The notes beneath the pieces were generated by a model, which saw nothing but the letters and a program-made list of their open reading frames with translations, was not told where the DNA came from and did no database searches. Source: Patescibacteria group bacterium (lineage in GTDB: Bacteria; Patescibacteriota; Doudnabacteria; UBA920). From it: 64,000 nt of DNA. The stretch is from contig DAIMCS010000004.1 of assembly GCA_036726225.1 (NCBI GenBank), positions 21,829 to 85,828 of the forward strand. Direction: 5' to 3'. Positions 3,204 to 48,825 of this stretch are shown here, piece after piece (positions within the stretch are counted from its first letter, which is position 1; each line of letters opens with the position of its first letter). The translations under genes and the position numbers were made by a program.

Positions 3204-5357
3204 CTATTCGTTAGTTATTTCATATTCAAGTTCGCCGTCTGCTTCTTTAAAATGCTCCTTAGCCATGCCTCTGTAATCTATTTTGTCCTTTGGCAAAGCC
3301 TTTAAAATCCGGGAAGGCAGGCTGCTTTGCAAATTACCAAACACCCTGCGGGCATGGGTATACACTAAAAACAAACGTTTACGGGCGCGGGTTAGGCCCA
3401 CATAAGCCAGGCGGATTTCTTCGGAAAGCTCCTCCGGGTCAATAAGGCTTCTGGAATGCGGCAATATCCCCTCTTCTAACCCGACAAAAAATACGTTGTC
3501 AAACTCAAGGCCTTTAGCCGAATGAAGCGTCATTAAGGTTACCGCGTCTTTGCTTTCATCCTTTTGGTCAATTTCGGAAATTAGCGCGACTTCCTCCAAA
3601 AATTCCGTGGCCGCTTGCCTCCAGGGCAGATTTTTAAATTTATGCGCAACGTTAATTAATTCCAAAACGTTTTCGTAACGGGATTCTCCCGACTCGCTAC
3701 CGTCCCGCAAATATTTTTCATACCCGCTTTTTTTAACTATTACTTTCATTAATTCCGGAAGGGTAAAAGATTCATTAAACAGGAAAAATTCTTCCAGGAG
3801 AGCAAAAAAATTTTGTGCGGCTTGCCACGCTTTTGGCTGGAGTTTAATTTCAGAAAAAGCAATTCTGAATTCTGCTATGCTTCTGTCTTTTCCATTATTA
3901 GTAAAATTTAAAATAAAATCGCGAATTCCTTCGTACGACTTGTCACCAATGCCCCTGGGCGGCTCGTTAATTACCCGTTTTAGCGAAACTAAATCTTTAA
4001 AATTTAAAGCCAGGCGCAGGTAAGCCAGCACGTCTTTTATTTCCATACGTTCGTAAAATTTCAGACCGCCGACAATTTGGTAAGGGATAGAAGCTTCAAT
4101 AAGCGCTTCTTCCAAATTTCTGGATTGCGCATGGGTGCGGTACAGGACACAGTACTCTTTAAGCGATTCGTGTTTTTTTGGCATTTGCGGAAGCAGGCCC
4201 CTGCCAAAGCCGGCGGAATAATTCGCCTGCATTTTTTTAGCTTTAATAAACCTGTCCAAAATAGAAAATGCCGGCTTGTCGTCGCCAAGATTGTGAGTAT
4301 TGTCCAACGCATATTCCAGGTCGCCGGGCTGGTTTGTAGAAAGGCTAATTATAGTCCGCGCCACAAATTCTGCTTCCCCCCTTTCGTCGTCCTCGCAAGT
4401 TAAAATAATTTTCTCCCCCTGCTCATTGTTCGTCCACAAAGTCTTTTGCTTTTGCTGCGGGTTTAGCTCAATGACTTTTTGCGCCGCGTCCAATATATTT
4501 TTAGTGGAGCGATAATTTTGCTCAAGCTTAATAAGCAGCCCTTCGGGGTAATCTTTTTCAAAATTTAAAATGTTAGTTATGTCCGAGCCGCGGAATTTGT
4601 ATATGCTTTGCGCGTCATCGCCCACCACAAAAATATTGCGGTGAGTGGCCAAAAGCGTTAAAAACAGGTATTGGGCGGCGTTCGTGTCCTGGTACTCGTC
4701 TACCAGTATATAACTAAACTTTTTGCGGTATTTTTCCAAAACTTTTGGGAAATTTTGGAAAATTTTAACTGTCAGCATAAGCAAATCGTCAAAATCCAGT
4801 GCATTTTGCCTGTATAGTGAATCCTGGTATTGGCTATAGACTTCCAAAAGCCTTTCCCGCAAAGGCGATTCCAAACCTAAATTTAACTCCGAAGGGAGCT
4901 GCAAAATATTTTTTGCCCTGGAAATAAGCGCACCAAACAGTGAAGGCGGCATACGTTTGGTGTCTATTCTTAAATTTTCCAAAATCTCCTTTATGACTTT
5001 CTGCTGGTCCTGGCTGTCAAAAATTACAAAATCGTTGCCGTATCCTAAAACGCCTATTTCGTGGCGCAAAATTTTGGCGCACACGGAATGGAACGTTCCC
5101 ATGGTTAAATTATCTGTTGCAGATGTGTACCTGGCCAACAAAGCAGAAATCCTTTGCCGCATTTCTTTAGCCGCCTTGTTGGTAAAGGTTAGGGCCAAAA
5201 TATTCGCCGGATGCGCCACTTTCTTTTCTATTATATAAGCAATGCGGTGGGTTAAAGTTTTGGTTTTCCCGCTGCCGGGCCCGGCCAATACCAAAACCGG
5301 ACCCCCGGGGGCTTCTACCGCCTGCCTTTGCATATTGTTTAAGGAAGATAAATCCAT
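3204..5357 (-). CDS. pcrA: ATP-dependent DNA helicase, UvrD/PcrA/Rep family
   Basis: Walker A GPGSGKT; UvrD helicase motifs (TFTNKAA, DEYQDTN, VGDDAQSIY, YRS, LMTLHSAKGLEF). Confidence 0.9.
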   Translation of the reverse strand: MDLSSLNNMQRQAVEAPGGPVLVLAGPGSGKTKTLTHRIAYIIEKKVAHPANILALTFTNKAAKEMRQRISALLARYTSATDNLTMGTFHSVCAKILRHEIGVLGYGNDFVIFDSQDQQKVIKEILENLRIDTKRMPPSLFGALISRAKNILQLPSELNLGLESPLRERLLEVYSQYQDSLYRQNALDFDDLLMLTVKIFQNFPKVLEKYRKKFSYILVDEYQDTNAAQYLFLTLLATHRNIFVVGDDAQSIYKFRGSDITNILNFEKDYPEGLLIKLEQNYRSTKNILDAAQKVIELNPQQKQKTLWTNNEQGEKIILTCEDDERGEAEFVARTIISLSTNQPGDLEYALDNTHNLGDDKPAFSILDRFIKAKKMQANYSAGFGRGLLPQMPKKHESLKEYCVLYRTHAQSRNLEEALIEASIPYQIVGGLKFYERMEIKDVLAYLRLALNFKDLVSLKRVINEPPRGIGDKSYEGIRDFILNFTNNGKDRSIAEFRIAFSEIKLQPKAWQAAQNFFALLEEFFLFNESFTLPELMKVIVKKSGYEKYLRDGSESGESRYENVLELINVAHKFKNLPWRQAATEFLEEVALISEIDQKDESKDAVTLMTLHSAKGLEFDNVFFVGLEEGILPHSRSLIDPEELSEEIRLAYVGLTRARKRLFLVYTHARRVFGNLQSSLPSRILKALPKDKIDYRGMAKEHFKEADGELEYEITNE

Positions 5358-5478
5358 CCCGTTAGAAGAAAATTAAAAATTGTATTTATAGACAAAAATC
5401 GAACAGATTGAAGAAAACTAATACCCGTTAAAAATATTAAACTTCTAACGGGATCCATTAGGTCATCTTATCATACAA

Positions 5479-5540
5479 TCATTTTATCATTCTAACATCC
5501 GATAATTTTTTTACTTGAATTTTGGCAAGATGATAAAATG
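5479..5540. repeat. Cargo-less inverted-repeat pair TCATTTTATCAT ... ATGATAAAATG, related to the repeats flanking the four-helix-bundle gene at 15224-15636
   Basis: Seen in sequence: TCATTTTATCATTCTAACAT at 5479 matches TCATTTTATCATCTTAACAT at 15224 (20/22). Its reverse complement GATGATAAAATG lies at 5529-5540, about 38 bp away. Confidence 0.45.
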
Positions 5541-5668
5541 TCAAAATATGCTTTATTTAAGCCATAAATCATTAATTTTCTTATAAATAAAGCCTCAACT
5601 GACAACTTGTGGATGAAAAACCTTGTCCCATAAAAGCATCCTTGCTAAACTAGTCAAAGATAAAAAAC

Positions 5669-19908: not shown

Positions 19909-21315
19909 TCATTGCCAGTCATCCAGCGCCTCCTCGGTGGACAGCGCCAAGGCGGCCCTGACGTTGATATCGTGCTCGATCTCTGAGCGGGGCATGGCCC
20001 ATCGTCCACGGCATCGCGAAAGCAAATCTCCAGAGGAGGGCAATGCCTTGATCTCCGGCACTTGAATTTGCGACCAGCGATAGGAGCCGCTTTTGACAAT
20101 CATTTGACGGTGAGGCAGGTGGCGGAGCAGTTCAGATAGCTGCTTTCCGCCACCCAGGGCTGATGCCATCTTGCTGGCATCATCGCTGGAAAGCTGAAAC
20201 AGAACGTGCGTGCCGACAGCAAGGATTGCGGCCTTCATCTGCGGTGGATATTGCTCCAAGAATTGGTTGGCCGAGACGACTGAAATGCCGAACTTCCTGG
20301 CTTCGGACAACAGTGTGTCGATGCCGGCGTCGAAGGTCACGAGATTCTGGATTTCGTCGCAATAGAGCGTAAAAACCCTCCTCGATTTTCTTCGAAAAAT
20401 CGCATGCTTGAGCTTGGCAAGAAATAGGCTGCCCAAGGTCGACGCCTGTTCGCCCAAACGGCCTTTGTCCAGGTTGAGAATGATCCAGTAGCCGTTATCC
20501 ATCGCATCGAGTAGAGAAAAACTCGAGTGCTCCTGACCCAAGATGTGGCGAAAGTGCGGGTCCGCGGTAAACGCCGTCGTCTTATTCAACACCGCCTCCC
20601 TAAATGCAGCCTGCATCCCCTCGCTGATTCGGTCATATCGCGTCTCGAAATATCGGCGGACTTCAGGATTGCGAACATGCTCCAGGCATGCTGTCCGAAA
20701 GGCGGAATGAGTCAGCAGCGGTGCGATCTCAAGGAACGTGAGACGGCTTTCCGACAAGACATACAGTGCGTTCCTGAGCAGCTCTTCTGTCCTGGCCCCC
20801 AACGCGTCCAGATGCCAGCGTTGTTTCAGTATCTGTGCGAACTCCGAAATCTGGACGAAATTGGAATCGGCTGCTTTGGGCTGTTCGAGGACATTGAGAC
20901 CGACGGAGTAGCGGGGATCACCCGGTTCGATGACGATCAGCTTTTGAGTTAGGTCCTCATTACGCGATCGTTCCCTTTGCGCGATGGCCGCGAGCAGGAA
21001 GCTTTGAGCGTCGCCATGGAGATCGAAGAAGACAAAACCGCGATTGGCCTCGATGTCCTGCAAAACAAAATGTTTGAGCAGAGTCGACTTGCCCGTGCCC
21101 GTCTTGCCCAACACAGCGATGTGCTCCGGCCGACGAGCGTGCGGTAACAACGACATTGAAGGATGGAGCGGCAGTATGCTGGCCCGTCCCAGTTTGGATC
21201 GTCTCCGCGACGATGCGACAAAAGGAAGTTTTGATGCCGTACTGCTCAATGATGTAGACCGCCTAGCCCGCGATGTTGCGCATTTGGGAATAATCAAGCG
21301 GGGTTTCGAGAGCAA
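19909..21315 (-). CDS. TraD/TraG/VirD4-like conjugative coupling-type P-loop ATPase (soluble form lacking an N-terminal TM domain)
   Basis: Walker A LGKTGTGKST; Walker B-like FVFFDLHGDA; C-terminal LYCDEIQNL...ARKFGISVVSANQ typical of the T4SS DNA-transfer (TraD/HerA-like) ATPase domain. Confidence 0.55.
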   Translation of the reverse strand: MLSKPRLIIPKCATSRARRSTSLSSTASKLPFVASSRRRSKLGRASILPLHPSMSLLPHARRPEHIAVLGKTGTGKSTLLKHFVLQDIEANRGFVFFDLHGDAQSFLLAAIAQRERSRNEDLTQKLIVIEPGDPRYSVGLNVLEQPKAADSNFVQISEFAQILKQRWHLDALGARTEELLRNALYVLSESRLTFLEIAPLLTHSAFRTACLEHVRNPEVRRYFETRYDRISEGMQAAFREAVLNKTTAFTADPHFRHILGQEHSSFSLLDAMDNGYWIILNLDKGRLGEQASTLGSLFLAKLKHAIFRRKSRRVFTLYCDEIQNLVTFDAGIDTLLSEARKFGISVVSANQFLEQYPPQMKAAILAVGTHVLFQLSSDDASKMASALGGGKQLSELLRHLPHRQMIVKSGSYRWSQIQVPEIKALPSSGDLLSRCRGRWAMPRSEIEHDINVRAALALSTEEALDDWQ

Positions 21316-27474: not shown

Positions 27475-28107
27475 ATGTCTGACAATAAAACAGTGCTAAC
27501 AAGTACGTTAAAAGCCTGGGCGCCCCTGGCCGTTGTAATTGTAATTTTCGCAGGGCTAATTTACGCCACGGCGCAGCAAAACTACCGCCAAAATGCTAAC
27601 GACCCCCAAATCCAACTCGCCCGTGATGTGGCAGACGCCATTTTACAGGGAACGCCGGCTGACGCTATAGTCCCCCAAGTGGGCAACACAGACCTTAAAA
27701 AAAGCCTTTCCCCTTTTCTCATAATTTTTGACGCTTCGGGCAAACCGCTTGGCTCTTCTGCAATATTAAATGGCCAAAATCCCGAATATCCAATTGGTAT
27801 GCTTGAAGAAGCCAAAAAGACCGGTGAGCACCGTGCAACTTGGCAGCCCGAACCCGGAGTGAGAATTGCTGCAGTAGTGGTGCATTATAGTGACAAAGAC
27901 CAGTCTGGCTATGTGGTAGCCGGCCGCTCGCTTACAGAAATAGAAGCCCGGGTTGCTAAAATAGCTGCCCTGGTCGCTATGGCCTCTGCCGCTGCCTTAA
28001 TTATTAGCTTGCTGTTAATTTTTATATTTAAAAAATTATGTAAAAACTGCCTCCCACAGCACCATCAACACACGGAAATAACTATAGATTCAACTAAGGA
28101 AGTCTAA
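27475..28107 (+). CDS. Hypothetical membrane protein (N- and C-terminal TM helices, His-rich tail QHHQH)
   Basis: Hydropathy pattern and ORF context only. Confidence 0.45.
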   Translation: MSDNKTVLTSTLKAWAPLAVVIVIFAGLIYATAQQNYRQNANDPQIQLARDVADAILQGTPADAIVPQVGNTDLKKSLSPFLIIFDASGKPLGSSAILNGQNPEYPIGMLEEAKKTGEHRATWQPEPGVRIAAVVVHYSDKDQSGYVVAGRSLTEIEARVAKIAALVAMASAAALIISLLLIFIFKKLCKNCLPQHHQHTEITIDSTKEV

Positions 28108-28114
28108 TTATCCC

Positions 28115-28208
28115 TGTCATTGCCGCGTCGTCACACCTTTTTGCATAAAAAAGGTGTGACGACGCGGCAATCTTAAAATAGATTGCTTCGGATGCACTCG
28201 CAATGACA
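28115..28208. repeat. ~94-bp palindromic element with TGTCATTGC... / ...GCAATGACA termini and an internal perfect 19-bp hairpin
   Basis: tgtcattgccgcgtcgtcacacc-tttttgcataaaaa-ggtgtgacgacgcggcaat ... gcactcgcaatgaca; related to the element at 45928-46026. Confidence 0.5.
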
Positions 28209-28222
28209 CTAAATCTAAAATC

Positions 28223-28642
28223 ATGCCGAAGGTTCAGGTTAATGAAGAAGAATTAAAAAAGAAACTCACGCCCGAGCAGTACCATATACTGCGCGAAAAA
28301 GGGACGGAAGCGCCGGGTACGAGTGAGCTTTTACATGAAAAAGGTAAAGGGATGTTCAATTGCGCCGTTTGCGGCCAGCAATTGTTTGCATCGGACAATA
28401 AATTCGACAGCGGCACCGGCTGGCCTTCCTTTGACCAAGCCCTGCCCGGAGCTGTGGAGTTTAATGAAGACAAAGATTTAGGCATGAGCCGGACCGAGGT
28501 AACCTGCTCGAACTGCGGCAGCCATTTAGGCCACGTATTTGATGACGGCCCAACAAAGACAACCGGTAAAAGATTTTGTATTAATGGCGCGTGCCTAATG
28601 CATAATCCTGAGCCCGTCGAAGGGCACCAGCCTAAGCAGTAA
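28223..28642 (+). CDS. msrB: Peptide-methionine (R)-S-oxide reductase
   Basis: SelR/MsrB fold: two CxxC pairs (CAVCGQQLF; CSNCGSHLGHVF) and the catalytic region; 139 aa. Confidence 0.9.
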   Translation: MPKVQVNEEELKKKLTPEQYHILREKGTEAPGTSELLHEKGKGMFNCAVCGQQLFASDNKFDSGTGWPSFDQALPGAVEFNEDKDLGMSRTEVTCSNCGSHLGHVFDDGPTKTTGKRFCINGACLMHNPEPVEGHQPKQ

Positions 28643-28680
28643 CTGTGCCCTGCCGGAGCTATTAGAAATCTATATATGGA

Positions 28681-28738
28681 TCCCGGATATTTTGCTTTAG
28701 CAAAATTCCGGGATGACACGCTCATAAGAGCGTGTCAT
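28681..28738. terminator. Two tandem hairpins between convergent msrB and the alkA-like gene
   Basis: cccggatattttgc/gcaaaattccggg, then atgacacgctc-ataa-gagcgtgtcat (perfect 11-bp stem). Confidence 0.5.
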
Positions 28739-29334
28739 TTTAAATTCAAGCTCGCCCATAAGTACCTTGCCGCAGTCGTTCGATGCGGGCTCCAAGACTC
28801 TACCAGCTTATGATATTTTTTAGGATGAACTTTTATTTCCAGTTTATACCAGCGCTTAATTGCGTTTTTAAGACCCAAGTCGCCGTGCGAAAATACGTCA
28901 GGCCGGGCCAGCGAAAACATTAAAAACATTTCCGCGCTCCAGCGGCCAATGCCTTTTAACTTAGTAAGGCTGACGATAATTTCTTCATCAGCCATTTTTT
29001 TAAACTGTTTAAAGTCTATTTCTTTTTTAACAATAGCCCTGGCAATACCTTTTATATAATTTACTTTTTGGCCCGAAAGCCCGGCTTTCCTAATACTGGC
29101 TGATGATTTACTTAAAATTTCAATCGCTGACGGGAATCGTCGCCCGCCGAAAATCATCCGAAACCTTTTTTCAATTGTATCTGCCGCCTTGGTGGAAAGC
29201 TGCTGGTTAATAATGGCCACGCATAAAGCTTCAAAGTAACGGTTGTGGGGTTTGTAAGGCTGCAGTTTAATTTGCCTAACAATCTTTTTAAGCACCGGGT
29301 CAACCTCCTCCAAATGCTTACTACTCTTATGCAT
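28735..29334 (-). CDS. HhH-GPD family DNA glycosylase (AlkA / 3-methyladenine glycosylase II-like)
   Basis: HhH-GPD hallmark LTKLKGIGRWSAEMFLMFSL...PDVFSHGDLGL with the catalytic Asp region. Confidence 0.7.
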   Translation of the reverse strand: MHKSSKHLEEVDPVLKKIVRQIKLQPYKPHNRYFEALCVAIINQQLSTKAADTIEKRFRMIFGGRRFPSAIEILSKSSASIRKAGLSGQKVNYIKGIARAIVKKEIDFKQFKKMADEEIIVSLTKLKGIGRWSAEMFLMFSLARPDVFSHGDLGLKNAIKRWYKLEIKVHPKKYHKLVESWSPHRTTAARYLWASLNLK

Positions 29335-41165: not shown

Positions 41166-41198
41166 ACTGTCATTGCGAGCGAAGCGAAGTAATCTATC

Positions 41199-41228
41199 CA
41201 AAGTATAAAACCCCGCTATCGGCGGGGT
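41199..41228. terminator. Rho-independent terminator after typA
   Basis: aaaaccccgc-tatcg-gcggggtttt, with flanking A/T runs; it is bidirectional. Confidence 0.7.
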
Positions 41229-41238
41229 TTTATCTTAA

Positions 41239-42417
41239 CTATTTCTTTGCTCGATGAGCACGAAAACCATCATCGAAGATTTCGTAATAATCGGCATATA
41301 TATATTTTTGAGCATATTCCGTCTCGCCAAGAGGTTCTAGAATTCTTAACTTTTGCAAACGCTCAATCATATTGTAGGCACCCTGAGGAGAAAAACCAGT
41401 CCACTTCATAATTTCCGAAATACCTACTATGGGCTGACTGAAAAGCTTGCGGACAATTTCCAAAGTTGATTCTGCCGATTTTTTGCCAAGCTTTTGCATT
41501 TTAGCAAAATCGCGATCGCGCAATGCAGTAATCTGAGCACATGTTTCTATACCAGATTCGGCTATTTCCGCAATTCCCTCAAGAAAAAAATCGAGCCAGC
41601 CATAGACGTCAGAATCTTCATCATGATACGCCTGAAGTTTCTGATAATATACTTTTTGGTATTTTTTGAAGTAGCTTGAAAGATACAAAACTGGTAACTC
41701 TAACAACTTTGCGTGATGAATATACATGGCAATTAACATCCTTCCAGTACGTCCGTTACCATCGGTAAACGGGTGAATAGTCTCAAATTGTGCATGAATT
41801 AAACCTGCCTTTACTAATGAAGGGTAATCATCTTTAGTGTGAATAAATTTCTCTAAATCGCCCATGGCTTTATTCATGTCATGTGGCGCTGGGGGGACGA
41901 ACGAAGCATCGGCGGGAGTTTTTCCACCAATCCAATTCTGAGTACTACGAAACTCACCTGGATATGCATGTTGTGTAGAACGAGCACCCGTCATTAATTT
42001 TTCATGTAATTCACGAATAAAACGCAAAGAGATCGGGAATTCCTTTGTTCTGTCAACGCCGTAATTCGCAGCCTTTATATAATGTTCAATATCGTCCACG
42101 TCAGGATTTTTCCTGTCTTTCTCCTCTGTCACTGGCGCGGCAACGGCATCTTGCAATGTAGCCTTAGTACCTTCGATCTGACTTGAGTAAGTAGCATCTT
42201 TTACTACGAACATAGAAATAAAAAAATCCTTATCAGGCAATAGACGCATAATACCATCTAGTTTACCAACCAACCTAATAGCCTCTTCGTGCTTTTTATA
42301 AAGTTTTGGGCTAATATTGAAACCAGCTTTTGGCGGGAAATCCAAAGGCGTGAAGGTCTTATAACCTTCTTTTTGTTGTATATACTTGCCAATTTTCGGT
42401 TTGTTGATATCATTCAT
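41239..42417 (-). CDS. Fic-family protein (AMPylator-type) with an N-terminal inhibitory motif (class II-like)
   Basis: Fic motif HPFTDGNGRTGR; N-terminal SSQIEG matches the (S/T)xxxE(G/N) inhibitory helix; C-terminal wHTH-like region. Confidence 0.85.
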   Translation of the reverse strand: MNDINKPKIGKYIQQKEGYKTFTPLDFPPKAGFNISPKLYKKHEEAIRLVGKLDGIMRLLPDKDFFISMFVVKDATYSSQIEGTKATLQDAVAAPVTEEKDRKNPDVDDIEHYIKAANYGVDRTKEFPISLRFIRELHEKLMTGARSTQHAYPGEFRSTQNWIGGKTPADASFVPPAPHDMNKAMGDLEKFIHTKDDYPSLVKAGLIHAQFETIHPFTDGNGRTGRMLIAMYIHHAKLLELPVLYLSSYFKKYQKVYYQKLQAYHDEDSDVYGWLDFFLEGIAEIAESGIETCAQITALRDRDFAKMQKLGKKSAESTLEIVRKLFSQPIVGISEIMKWTGFSPQGAYNMIERLQKLRILEPLGETEYAQKYIYADYYEIFDDGFRAHRAKK

Positions 42418-42521
42418 AGCAATATCAACATATTAGGCTATTTAGTTGATATTGTCAAGAGAGATGTCAACTGTTTTGAAAATGCTCATTTTAATGGGCC
42501 ATGTCCCCATTTTTTATTAAG

Positions 42522-44169: not shown

Positions 44170-45897
44170 TTACATTTGAGGCTGGGGGGCTGTTGGGGCT
44201 ACGGGTTTTATAGGATCTATTTCGTAATCTTCAAAGTATTCTAAGGAATTATCCTTCCTGGGCACGCGGCTTTCGTCGCCTTCTAAGGCTGGGTCGCCAA
44301 TGTAATTTATCCGTCCGGCGTTAAAAATTCTATACTTTAACACATCTGTCACCCAAACATTGGCGTGGGAAGAATTGCCAGCGGTAATATTTGCGTTGGC
44401 GGCTTTGAGCGCGCGGGAATCCAAATTGGAAGCGTTTTGAAGTGTAGCATTAAAGTTTTGGGCTTCGCCGGCAACTTTAAAAAAACTGGAATTTAAAAGA
44501 TTGGCATTTAAAGTCTGGCCTTTAAAAGTAAATCCGGCGCTGGCAGAGTTTGAAAGATTTATAGTTGTAGTAGTTGCGGTTAAAGATGCACTTTGCACGT
44601 TAGAAGAATTTCTTGCGGTAATTTCTTCAAAGAAGGGCGCGGTTATTTCTACCAATGTGTCGCCGCTTATGCAAAAGAAGCAATGGCCTTCTGATTTCTT
44701 TGTAATTTTAAGCAAATCCCCTTCTTGGGTAACTTCAAGCCTGTCTACATCCATTGCCCAGCCCTGGCCTCGAATTTTAAATTCATTGCCTTCAACTAAT
44801 TTATAGTCTATGGAATTAGAAACATCTATTCTTTTGAAATCTCTATGATCAAAAGTTTTAGATACTGTTTGAAGCTCGGGACTGTTTTTTACCTGCTGCA
44901 CATAGCCCGGAATGTAGCGGCTGCCCAAAACCCCGGCAAAAACCAAGGCAATTAGCCAAACCCCAAACAAGCTAAAACCAACAGTGGAGCTGACAATTTT
45001 GCGCTTGCTAAACAAAGCCACAAAAAGCAATAGCAAAAAAATTAAAGGAACAATAACCAAAGCATAGGCAATAACCAACAAAAAATGGAAACCGGCCCCG
45101 TGGGCAATGGTTGAAAGAGGAAAACCAATGTAAGGCGAGTTAACATTAAAAAGCAGGGAAACAAACGCCGTGGTAAAGAGTGCTGTGGCAAAAGCAAAAC
45201 CAACTACCAACAAAAACGAAAGCACTTTAACTAAAATACTAAGAAGCCTTTTTAAAATTTCCCCTACCCGCGAGAAAAATTCATTCAGAGAACCGCCTAC
45301 TCGCTTTTTTTTTACGTGCTCCTCAAACTCATGCGCACGCTCTTTTATGGTTTGTCCTATGGAATCTAAATTAAGCGGCTCGCCGCGCATTTGCATTTTT
45401 TCGGTTGGCGTTTTAGCTTCGGGCATTATAAGCCACAAAACTAAGTAAATGGGGATCATTGTACCCCAGGCAAATAATAAAACCACAAACCCCAAACGCA
45501 CCCAAAAAGGGTCAATGTCAAAATATGCGGCAATGCCCGAAGCTACACCGGCAATAACTTTGTTGGAGCCGTCGCGCATTAGTTTTTTTGGCGCAAAAGA
45601 AGTCTTTTCTTCGGACCTTTTACCGCTGTCTTGGCCGGTTATGTCTTCCACACTGCCAAGCTCTTGTATGAGTTTTTCAGCGTCGCTCAAAGTAATTACC
45701 GCCTGCGTGTTTCCTTGGTGTTGCTCGGAAAACTTTTCCGCAATCCGGTTTTCCATGTCTTGAACAATTTCCTCGCTTCCCGGGTACCTGGCAAAATGCG
45801 CCCTAATAGAGCTTAAGTACTCGTCCAGTTTTTTGTAGGCGTCTTCTTCTATAAAAAAGTTTGTGCCGCCTAAATTTATGCTTATTGTTTTATTCAT
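44170..45897 (-). CDS. PspC-domain membrane protein with a C-terminal DUF4097/DUF2807 (LiaG-like 'adhesin') beta-region
   Basis: PspC core KKLMRDGSNKVIAGVASGIAAYFDIDPFWVRLGFVVL; several TM helices; C-terminal Asn/Ser/Thr-rich beta-repeat domain. Confidence 0.7.
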   Translation of the reverse strand: MNKTISINLGGTNFFIEEDAYKKLDEYLSSIRAHFARYPGSEEIVQDMENRIAEKFSEQHQGNTQAVITLSDAEKLIQELGSVEDITGQDSGKRSEEKTSFAPKKLMRDGSNKVIAGVASGIAAYFDIDPFWVRLGFVVLLFAWGTMIPIYLVLWLIMPEAKTPTEKMQMRGEPLNLDSIGQTIKERAHEFEEHVKKKRVGGSLNEFFSRVGEILKRLLSILVKVLSFLLVVGFAFATALFTTAFVSLLFNVNSPYIGFPLSTIAHGAGFHFLLVIAYALVIVPLIFLLLLFVALFSKRKIVSSTVGFSLFGVWLIALVFAGVLGSRYIPGYVQQVKNSPELQTVSKTFDHRDFKRIDVSNSIDYKLVEGNEFKIRGQGWAMDVDRLEVTQEGDLLKITKKSEGHCFFCISGDTLVEITAPFFEEITARNSSNVQSASLTATTTTINLSNSASAGFTFKGQTLNANLLNSSFFKVAGEAQNFNATLQNASNLDSRALKAANANITAGNSSHANVWVTDVLKYRIFNAGRINYIGDPALEGDESRVPRKDNSLEYFEDYEIDPIKPVAPTAPQPQM

Positions 45898-45927: not shown

Positions 45928-46026
45928 TGTCATTCCGAGCGAGGCCTTTTGGGCCGAGTCGAGGAATCCCTTTAATTTGATATTTATCCCGGATTAAGGG
46001 ATCCCTCCACTTCGGTCGGGATGACA
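45928..46026. repeat. ~99-bp palindromic element with TGTCATTCCGAGCG / CGGTCGGGATGACA termini and a nested internal inverted repeat
   Basis: Terminal inverted repeat of 14 bp (12/14 match); internal gaatccctttaat ... attaagggatcc; intergenic between the padR-like and pspC-like genes. Confidence 0.5.
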
Positions 46027-46032
46027 TGCAGA

Positions 46033-46401
46033 TTAGGAGGCATACTTACTAATTAATGATTTAATGCTTTTTGAAAGTTGGTCCCAATTTTTTTCTAAAG
46101 CCTTTAAGGTTTGCCTGCCGCTCTCCGTTAGCCGGTAATACTTACGGGGCGGTCCGGCTTTACTTTCCACCCATTTGTATTCAAGCAGTCCGCCGTCTTT
46201 AAGGCGGCTTAAAAGCGGATAAAGCGTGCCTTCAACAACTATAAGGTCAAAATCTTTTAGCTCTTTTAAGATGTCCGACGGATAGATCTCTTCTTTGGAG
46301 ATAATAAGCAAAATACAAAATTCTAAAATGCCTTTGCGCATTTGGCCTTTGGTATTTTCTATGTCAAAGTCGTTTGTATTTGTCATAATGGAATTATACA
46401 C
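46033..46401 (-). CDS. PadR-family transcriptional regulator
   Basis: wHTH with LYPLLSRLKDGGLL...YYRLTESGR; 122 aa. Confidence 0.8.
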   Translation of the reverse strand: MYNSIMTNTNDFDIENTKGQMRKGILEFCILLIISKEEIYPSDILKELKDFDLIVVEGTLYPLLSRLKDGGLLEYKWVESKAGPPRKYYRLTESGRQTLKALEKNWDQLSKSIKSLISKYAS

Positions 46402-47958: not shown

Positions 47959-48190
47959 ATAAAAAAACCCTGCTATAAGGGCATTTTTGGCGGGCCGCTA
48001 TCCAGGCCTTTAGAATCTTTTGTCGGTATTCCCAAAAAATTCAGATTTGATTCTTTTGTCGGGGCCCCCAAATTTTCATTCCGGAATTTTCAAAGGAAAA
48101 TTTGGGGCAAGGGGCAACGCCCGAAACGAAGTGAGCTTTTTGTCCGCCAAAGAAGGACAAAAACGAACGAAGTGGAGGGCGATTGACCCG

Positions 48191-48266: not shown

Positions 48267-48398
48267 GGAAATATAAATAACCTTGATATCTTACACTAAA
48301 TAAGCAGCTTTTTCAACCCCAGATATTAGGGCTCCCAAAAATTCAATGCATTTTTGGGATGAGGGGCAACGAACGAAGCGAGGACAATTGACCCGATG

Positions 48399-48480
48399 TG
48401 GTGACCCCGGTAAGATTTGAATCCCTCGACTTGGCTCAGGACAGGCTCTACTGCCTCGTGGTTTAAAGCCGGGCGCTGCT
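48399..48480 (-). pseudogene. Degenerate partial copy of tRNA-Arg (pseudo-tRNA)
   Basis: Matches tRNA-Arg from the D-stem 3' side to the CCA end (AGCGCC-C/T-GGCTT..AACCA.GAGGCAGTAG...TTCAAATC.TACCGGGGTCACCA). The 5' acceptor cannot pair, the anticodon loop is mutated to CTTTAAA, and about 26 nt are inserted in the T-arm. Confidence 0.4.
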
Positions 48481-48508
48481 CCCCCGCCCGACTCGCTTTA
48501 GTATTATA

Positions 48509-48585
48509 TGGTGACCCCGGTAGGATTTGAACCTACTGCCTCCTGGTTCGAAGCCAGGCGCTCTATCCAAATGAGCTACGGAGTC
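48509..48585 (-). tRNA. tRNA-Arg (anticodon TCG)
   Basis: Manual fold: acceptor GACTCCG/CGGGGTC (one G-U), D-arm GCTC...GAGC, anticodon arm CCTGG-CTTCGAA-CCAGG, T-arm GTAGG-TTCAAAT-CCTAC, discriminator A, CCA encoded. Confidence 0.85.
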
Positions 48586-48825
48586 ATGTCAGGCGAGTCG
48601 GGCGGGTATCCAACATGAGCTACGGGTGCATGCCGCATTTTTCTTTTGGCGTTCCCATATAGTATAGCTAAAAAAAGCAAAATTGAAAATTCAACCCCGT
48701 TAGAAAATTCTTCAATTCTTTTGGATAATTTAAAGGTTTTTTACCCAAAAATAATTCAAAAAACAGAAAATCTATAAAAAAATTTTCTTATAGGGTCAAT
48801 TTTTGCTTTTCCTTATAAGCTAATT

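Follow-up and report, generated by a model that had tools for sequence, protein, structure and literature searches.

The 64,000-nt stretch analyzed here (hereafter, the window; Patescibacteria group bacterium, GenBank assembly GCA_036726225.1, contig DAIMCS010000004.1, positions 21,829 to 85,828 of the forward strand) carries six short repeat units of 27-60 nt, each built of a TGTC tag, a stem opening with A-T/T-A pairs, a variable loop, a closing stem and a C. Four of them make up two intergenic elements, A (28115-28208, 94 nt) and C (45928-46026, 99 nt), which are inverted pairs of one-strand hairpin units with their tags outward; the other two, at 28677-28718 and 41168-41196, are unpaired single units. 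The copies in the window are new and divergent, and the family to which they belong is known, its enzyme partner having been published in 2025. We regard it as probable that they are CGTC/TGTC-tagged repetitive extragenic palindromes (REPs), a superfamily renamed Ssn-related motifs (SRMs) in 2025, and that they act via an Ssn-type nuclease on the single-stranded hairpin. Membership of the units in the broad superfamily is well supported; by analogy with homologous systems, we infer a working nuclease partner in the window organism. The units and the features between them are as follows.

28115-28174, plus strand: left unit of A; TGTC, stem ATTGCCGCGTCG..., a long perfect hairpin as loop, closing stem ...CGACGCGGCAAT, C, tail CTT
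28175-28178, no strand: short A-rich spacer between the tails of element A, read directly from the letters
28179-28208, minus strand: right unit of A; TGTC ATTGC gagtgcatccgaa GCAAT C, tail CTA
28677-28718, minus strand: single unit; TGTC, 8-bp stem ATCCCGGA, 19-nt hairpin loop, TCCGGGAT, C, tail CCA
28712-28738, no strand: hairpin ATGACACGCTC-ATAA-GAGCGTGTCAT, in which the tag end of the 28677-28718 unit pairs with a second, inverted TGTCAT
41168-41196, plus strand: single canonical unit; TGTC ATTGC GAGCGAAGCGAA GTAAT C, tail CTA; the stem has one G-T pair and the loop is gagcgaagcgaa
45928-45970, plus strand: left unit of C; TGTC ATTCC gagcga-GGCCttttGGGCC-gagtcga GGAAT C, tail CCC; 26-nt loop with an inner hairpin
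45971-45997, no strand: spacer of C, with complementary ends (TTTAAT.../...ATTAA) that lengthen the long hairpin
45998-46026, minus strand: right unit of C; TGTC ATCCC gaccgaagtgga GGGAT C, tail CCC

The window was scanned for TGTC followed by a stem beginning AT, a loop, a closing stem ending AT and a C, with one G-T pair tolerated. The scan returned seven matches, the six units above and one at 20898 that is probably due to chance. First-order Markov sequences matched in dinucleotide frequencies gave 0.5 ± 0.7 units, and inverted pairs, of which the window has two, were found in 0 of 200 simulations; no unit was found in a further 7.6 kb of the contig. The TGTCAT 6-mer itself is enriched (26 occurrences vs 16.1 ± 3.4), and the loop word GANCGAAGYGR occurs four times in the window vs 0.28 expected. 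The idea that these are unrelated hairpins that happen to share TGTCAT could draw on two results: the bare 12-mer TGTCATTSCGAG, at two mismatches, has seven matches in the window vs 5.3 expected and is not significant alone, and a loose unit detector found about four matches per 100 kb in unrelated control contigs. These contigs came from a metagenome scan with MsrB, in which the relatives all had 69% identity or less, too distant for a comparison of empty sites, and served as a background control. Set against the excess of units and pairs, and against one unit with 25 of 26 bases identical to a widespread motif, such a coincidence has a negligible probability. The copies share more than the 6-mer; the original prediction had named sharing no more than that among the outcomes that would count against a family.

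The TGTC tag, the AT that starts the stem and the AT that closes it are each found in all six units, and so are the GTC of the tag and the closing C, and loop sequences vary widely. One stem has 8 bp (28677-28718) and one has at least 12 bp; the remaining four consist of 5 Watson-Crick pairs and enclose 12-26 nt. The tails, in window order, read CTT, CTA, CCA, CTA, CCC and CCC, with the first C invariant and the full CCA found once. Elements A and C lie where they had been predicted, begin with TGTCAT and finish with ATGACA, and their palindromic character is real, but neither is a single palindrome of about 95 nt, each being two shorter units in inverted orientation. Both fold far more strongly than shuffled sequences on either strand (element A, z = -10.9 as RNA and -11.1 as DNA; element C, z = -5.6 as RNA and -5.4 as DNA). 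The perfect arms of A are 24 nt long (28119-28142 and 28148-28171), which exceeds the 19 bp first described. The sequence after the typA stop, originally taken for a half-copy, is a complete single unit (TGTCATTGCGAGCGAAGCGAAGTAATC), one base off a 26-mer that is spread across bacterial phyla. The hairpin at 28712-28738 also proved real, and it overlaps the tag of the minus-strand unit at 28677-28718, which had been overlooked.

The tag and the AT ends of the stem are those of the CGTC-tagged REPs (families CGTC-1 to CGTC-4), defined by Di Nocera, De Gregorio & Rocco in 2013 (PMC3733652). Such REPs have an unpaired CGTC tag, frequently replaced by TGTC and also by CCTC, a stem of 8-9 bp that nearly always begins with complementary A and T, a loop of 4-5 nt, and a tail of three unpaired bases near CCA; loops of other lengths were mentioned for Bradyrhizobium, and unusual loops were discarded from the set. 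They mostly occur as head-to-head (HH) inverted dimers with spacers of 20-100 bp, sit between co-directional or convergent genes, and include Neisseria dRS3 and Rickettsia RPE-6 and RPE-4. No dedicated transposase was assigned to them, and no RAYT or IS200 gene was found flanked by CGTC units (PMC3733652). The window units carry the defining features of this group and form tag-outward pairs resembling REP dimers, and the earlier description as a REP-like small repeat family at gene ends holds. The 8-bp stem and CCA tail of the 28677-28718 unit fit the published description of CGTC-1.

Sequence collections were searched with patterns derived from the units. The first pattern was built on the unit after typA, with five positions left free, four of them in the stem; it matched 111 stretches of viral contigs and at least 120 stretches of the genome collection. 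The genome matches listed include Alpha-, Gamma- and Deltaproteobacteria, Bacteroidota, Chloroflexota, Cyanobacteria, Planctomycetota, Omnitrophota and Acidobacteriota, with complete Bradyrhizobium genomes among them. The exact canonical 26-mer GTCATTGCGAGCGAAGCGAAGCAATC was found in 117 of the 124 matches in the viral set, with unrelated flanks. A second pattern, with three stem positions free per side, gave 116 matches, of which 106 were fully Watson-Crick at the three free stem positions, and at least eight different stems were seen (TCT/AGA, CCT/AGG, TCC/GGA, CCC/GGG and others). Stem covariation is clear, and it includes the ATTCC and ATCCC stems of element C, the ATTCC/GGAAT stem of its left unit being one of the covarying classes of the family. 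In copies that the pattern had not selected, the tag and closing C were 95-100% conserved, and the tag, stem and closing C were 92-100% conserved. The paired form predominates: 141 distinct inverted pairs were collected, with a modal length of about 82 nt (range, 59-184 nt) and a preference for C immediately before the tag.

The canonical 26-mer was also seen at 40 or more sites on the Novosphingobium resinovorum megaplasmid NZ_CP017076.1 (1.76 Mb) and in a few Helicobacter canis prophage records (BK070053-BK070057). Most of these matches coincide with no annotated feature, and two of the prophage matches lie inside a "hypothetical protein" feature. In a gathering-threshold Rfam scan of the whole window, only two tRNAs reached the threshold; permissive Rfam scans gave only generic hairpin matches to microRNA models in the element region and none for canonical dimers in six other loci. 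Literature searches with the DNA strings of the repeats and with peptides translated from them returned only chance primer matches or nothing. A resemblance to hammerhead, kink-turn or integron attC motifs was rejected by eye against the consensus motifs, and a reading of the purine-rich flank after ATGAC as a ribosome-binding site was dropped, as its distances to the next start codon were flat.

Close relatives of the window revealed one informative change within element A. The 5' arm of its left unit (28122-28129) reads CGCGTC in the window and in L004, and GAGGA in L001 (2829-3037), L002 and L003; these three contigs are from the same population and are identical to the window around A except for that arm. 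In L001-L003 the 5' arm reads ATTGC-GAGGA-GTCACACC, which is the usual GAG-type inner loop of the family. The GAG described for the start of both elements is thus present in these contigs, where A begins TGTCATTGCGAGGAG, and missing from A in the window, where it begins TGTCATTGCCGCG. CGCGTC is the exact complement of the 3' arm of the same unit, and templated quasi-palindrome correction leaves a characteristic trace of this kind, several bases altered together so that a hairpin becomes perfect. Judged from the two sequences, the arm change looks like such a correction, which would mean that the hairpin forms in single-stranded DNA in vivo.

Differences between other loci were also found. In L070 (3925-4150), a 40-nt insert (a unit plus AATGAC-TAAAAT) separates the start codon of a phage-like gene from its ribosome-binding site; it is cleanly absent from the same site in L078 (1435-1635), with no target duplication. 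A 36-nt hairpin fills the loop of one of two orthologous units (L057 vs L052). On the minus strand of L243 (8720-9090), three units with the stems ATTGC, ATTCT and ATCCT are nested in one another's loops, with recurring linkers between them (5' side, yCCTTCGCCTyCT; 3' side, ..GCTCAGGnnAnnCTCCGC..); the orthologous site in L103 (1050-1270) has one canonical unit. Across orthologous pairs, the units are conserved with compensatory changes and the spacers diverge fast. These differences between strains and orthologs fit mobile, structure-constrained elements, and the mechanism of spread is not established by them.

One rival reading, also named in the original prediction, makes the elements classical miniature inverted-repeat transposable elements (MITEs). 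Their source would be an insertion sequence with a DDE transposase that recognizes TGTCAT...ATGACA as terminal inverted repeats. Their size of about 95 nt, the inverted termini in the window with TG...CA ends, and the presence/absence differences between related contigs would all suit such elements. However, direct repeats of 3 nt or more, as a target-site duplication would leave, flank none of the 141 paired elements collected from other genomes, the general consensus of the family begins with CGTC and not with TG, and single units are common and conserved alone. No recurrent protein family dominates within 1.5 kb of 259 motif sites in an all-against-all clustering of open reading frames (ORFs), the largest clusters coming from related viral contigs; no parent element and no recurrent neighboring transposase were found, and the only IS200 seen (L038) has its own separate ends. 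We therefore consider a MITE origin very improbable. The ends of the L038 IS200 lie about 80 nt from the repeat, and its candidacy as a partner was set aside as coincidental.

About equally improbable is that the elements are REPINs in the strict sense, that is, paired REPs moved by a REP-associated tyrosine transposase (RAYT) of the IS200/IS605 superfamily. The spacer-separated inverted pairs do form long hairpins without target duplication, as REPINs do (PMC3116915), but the tag is (C/T)GTC and not GTAG, and no RAYT or IS200 gene flanked by CGTC units is known from the survey that defined them (PMC3733652). The window contains no IS200-like ORF; about 2.8 Mb of unit-bearing loci contain one, unrelated to the units, and the genes that are bracketed by units are GIY-YIG genes.

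The link to GIY-YIG nucleases connects the units to a second published definition. Motifs of the CGTC/TGTC type are known as NTS in Neisseria and as SRMs more generally, and they bracket genes for Ssn, a family of small single-domain GIY-YIG nucleases (cd10448; Chenal et al. 2025, PMC11893778). In vitro, SsnA binds the hairpin solely as single-stranded DNA and cuts it a few bases 5' of the tag; double-stranded DNA, RNA and the reverse strand are neither bound nor acted on. When the Neisseria motif was mutated, binding proved to depend critically on the C that directly follows the palindrome, and cutting on the three bases that precede it, whereas the identity of the loop is dispensable, the loop being removable and extendable. 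In Neisseria, SsnA lowers transformation about five-fold for incoming DNA that carries the motif (PMC11893778).

In our motif-anchored loci, four GIY-YIG genes were found, each of them with units on either side at a distance of no more than about 100 nt. A gene-anchored check of 44 ssn-like loci, all from viral contigs, detected units within 250 nt in 24 of them and on both sides in 14. The density of units was 3.26 per kb near the ssn-like gene vs 0.11 per kb elsewhere in the same loci, a 29-fold difference. The units flanking these genes are of the classical CGTC-1 and CGTC-3 forms and of the form with a GA-rich loop; in L437, the ssn-like gene is bracketed by TGTC-ATTGC-GAG..GAA-GCAAT-CT(A/G) pairs, which is the subtype of element A. 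The motif-ssn-motif arrangement is thus recovered independently of the published work (PMC11893778). The clustering of neighboring proteins missed this link because ssn is single-copy per genome, and anchoring on the gene revealed it. In L129, a 126-nt direct repeat with 96% identity (4877-5002 and 5436-5561) flanks an ssn-like gene within an inverted unit pair; it looks like part of the target duplicated at insertion.

The mechanism that we propose has had its steps shown for homologues and is extended here to the window genome. When DNA becomes single-stranded during replication, repair or the uptake of foreign DNA, the tag strand would fold into the hairpin. A small single-domain nuclease of the Ssn family (GIY-YIG, cd10448) would then bind it via the C that follows the stem and, reading GTC, would cut that strand a few bases 5' of the tag. 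In Neisseria, this cutting reduces the recombination of incoming DNA bearing the motif. The motif-ssn-motif order resembles an insertion sequence and suggests that the nuclease may also spread the motif. As a side effect, paired units would form very stable hairpins in transcripts that cross them and may affect mRNA ends.

That last effect could instead be the function itself, with the units selected at gene ends as host RNA elements, namely hairpins in 3' untranslated regions or within operons that block 3' exonucleases or stop transcription. The genomic positions suit this idea. All six units are intergenic, as the original prediction stated for the copies that it listed, near the 3' ends of genes that are co-directional or convergent with their neighbors. 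Element A sits between a co-directional 210-aa gene and msrB, starting 8 nt past the upstream stop and ending 14 nt before the msrB start. The 28677-28718 unit lies between the convergent genes for MsrB and an HhH-GPD glycosylase, and the TGA stop of the minus-strand gene at 28735..29334 falls within the 28712-28738 hairpin. The 41168-41196 unit begins 2 nt past the typA stop codon, between convergent genes, and both single units are within a few bases of stop codons. Element C is placed between a co-directional PadR-like gene (46033..46401) and a 575-aa gene (44170..45897). Across loci, matches are depleted in long ORFs (32% inside vs 73% of random positions). The very strong folding of A and C as RNA and the G-T pair in one window unit agree with an RNA role, which Di Nocera et al. 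argued for CGTC-REPs from position and G-T pairs (PMC3733652).

Nevertheless, we consider a primary RNA role unlikely. No terminator-like site was found in 27900-28900, and A, C and the 41168 unit have no T-run after them; the T-run near typA, read directly from the sequence, belongs to a separate hairpin behind that unit, at about 41207-41233. The earlier terminator interpretation is not supported. An RNA hairpin also leaves unexplained the unpaired GTC tag and closing C that are invariant across phyla. Single units show no sense-strand preference, the GA-rich loop can be folded only on the tag strand, and the RNA form of the motif is not bound by SsnA (PMC11893778). An RNA role is nonetheless possible as a secondary effect, compatible with the units being targets of an Ssn-type nuclease. 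The public gene calls include a 39-aa ORF wholly across element A (L001:2883-3002), almost certainly a spurious translation of the repeat.

Several observations weigh against assigning the window units to an Ssn-dependent family. The 64-kb window yielded no ssn homologue (best E = 0.22), and neither did an additional 7.6 kb of its contig; with none in about 72 kb, a partner nuclease in the window organism is putative. The published SRM string (HGTCWYN(0-2)YYVSBRHN(0-5)WNVSBRGN(0-2)RNCYNB) has zero matches in the window; it matches the Neisseria NTS and misses the 26-mer with the GA-rich loop. Altering the sequence of the palindrome while keeping its structure abolished the activity of the Neisseria enzyme (PMC11893778), so each variant would need its own matching enzyme. 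Stem and loop lengths depart from the CGTC-REP description (8-9 bp and 4-5 nt) in four of the six window units, where only 5 Watson-Crick pairs enclose 12-26 nt, and the CCA tail is found in only one of six. Finally, single units had no clear orientation bias relative to flanking genes by crude gene calls (24 sense, 38 antisense), a count that does not discriminate between a role in DNA and a role in RNA.

The units with a 5-bp stem and a GA-rich loop (canonical form, GTCATTGCGAGCGAAGCGAAGCAATC) may be a distinct SRM lineage that current definitions miss, a proposal that we put forward only tentatively and that we think is somewhat less probable than its opposite. This unit type is identical base for base in many phyla and in viral contigs. 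Its canonical long loop reads GA-GC-GNA-GC-GA, which suggests tandem G-A pairs and a GNA mini-hairpin. The d(GCGNAGC) mini-hairpin is known to be stable, and the middle base of the central GNA triloop is free in copies not selected by the pattern, which fits. In one viral contig (L297, IMGVR_UViG_2808606664_000001), tandem arrays with a 20-nt period, made of the 5' half of a unit and a linker (TTGTCATGTTGAG-CCTCTAT), were observed at 1560-1665 and 2200-2563. Some of these arrays finish in a complete unit, and on the opposite strand the repeat looks like the start codon of the neighboring gene with its ribosome-binding site.

Other palindromes and neighboring features of the contig were recorded as well. 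A perfect 14-nt inverted repeat (CCCGCCCGACTCGC / GCGAGTCGGGCGGG; 48483-48496 and 48593-48606) brackets a tRNA-Arg gene (48509-48585). Nearby, at about 48398-48480 on the minus strand, is a tRNA-like stretch ending ...GGGGTCACCA, called by neither ARAGORN nor Rfam; it shares with tRNA-Lys (regions 48100-48190 and 48340-48480) a 3' trailer containing the loop word GAACGAAGYG (48165 and 48371), and these trailers may be decayed units or a repeated trailer. An 18-nt inverted repeat with 89% complementarity and arms 73 nt apart (5351-5368 and 5442-5459) occupies the intergenic region between divergent UvrD-like and LysM/CHAP genes; the right arm, which finishes in ...ACGGGATCCATT, resembles a unit's 3' end with its tail, but a GTC tag is missing. 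The longest inverted repeat of the window (42403-42471; 34-nt arms, 74% complementary, 1 nt apart) covers the start codon region of a Fic-family gene (41239..42417, minus strand) together with the letters immediately before that gene. Just outside the window, ahead of its start on the same contig (L463:11569-20840), TrbL-like, PrgI, TraC-like and VirB4-type ATPase genes form a type IV secretion-like cluster, within which no unit or ssn gene was found.

For annotation, intergenic palindromes of this kind are better labeled as CGTC/TGTC-tagged REPs (Ssn-related motifs) than as MITEs or terminators, and short ORFs across them as spurious. The window copies show that the published SRM string under-detects divergent motifs, and units with the GA-rich loop are very widespread; for the Ssn family to serve as a toolkit that cuts single-stranded DNA, the variants and their matching enzymes need to be catalogued. 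The difference between strains within element A would be a natural example of a templated, hairpin-correcting mutation. The nested units, the clean presence/absence without target duplication and the ssn cassette flanked by 126-nt repeats would fit a hypothetical copy-and-paste movement of the motif by an Ssn-type nuclease. If such movement operates, the window genome, with six units and no ssn in 72 kb, could be a case of motifs kept without a resident nuclease.

Among known systems, the window elements resemble the CGTC-tagged REPs in their unpaired 5' TGTC tag, the A-T/T-A start of the stem and the unpaired tail starting with C, as well as in their organization as inverted dimers with spacers at gene 3' ends and with no associated transposase. 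The paper that defined those REPs covers five phyla, and the lineage of the window may not be among them. The likeness to the SRMs lies in the invariant GTC before the palindrome and C just after it, and in a loop that is free or extended; because the loop is free according to the Neisseria mutagenesis, a 24-bp perfect hairpin would be tolerated as the loop of one window unit. The overall arrangement parallels that of REPINs and RAYTs (Bertels & Rainey 2011, PMC3116915; Nunvar 2010, PMC2817692), with non-autonomous paired hairpins, a bracketed single-copy enzyme gene, no target duplication and action on single-stranded DNA. The two differ in their components, REPIN/RAYT systems combining a GTAG tag with an HUH/Y1 transposase and the family to which the window units belong combining a (C/T)GTC tag with a GIY-YIG nuclease.

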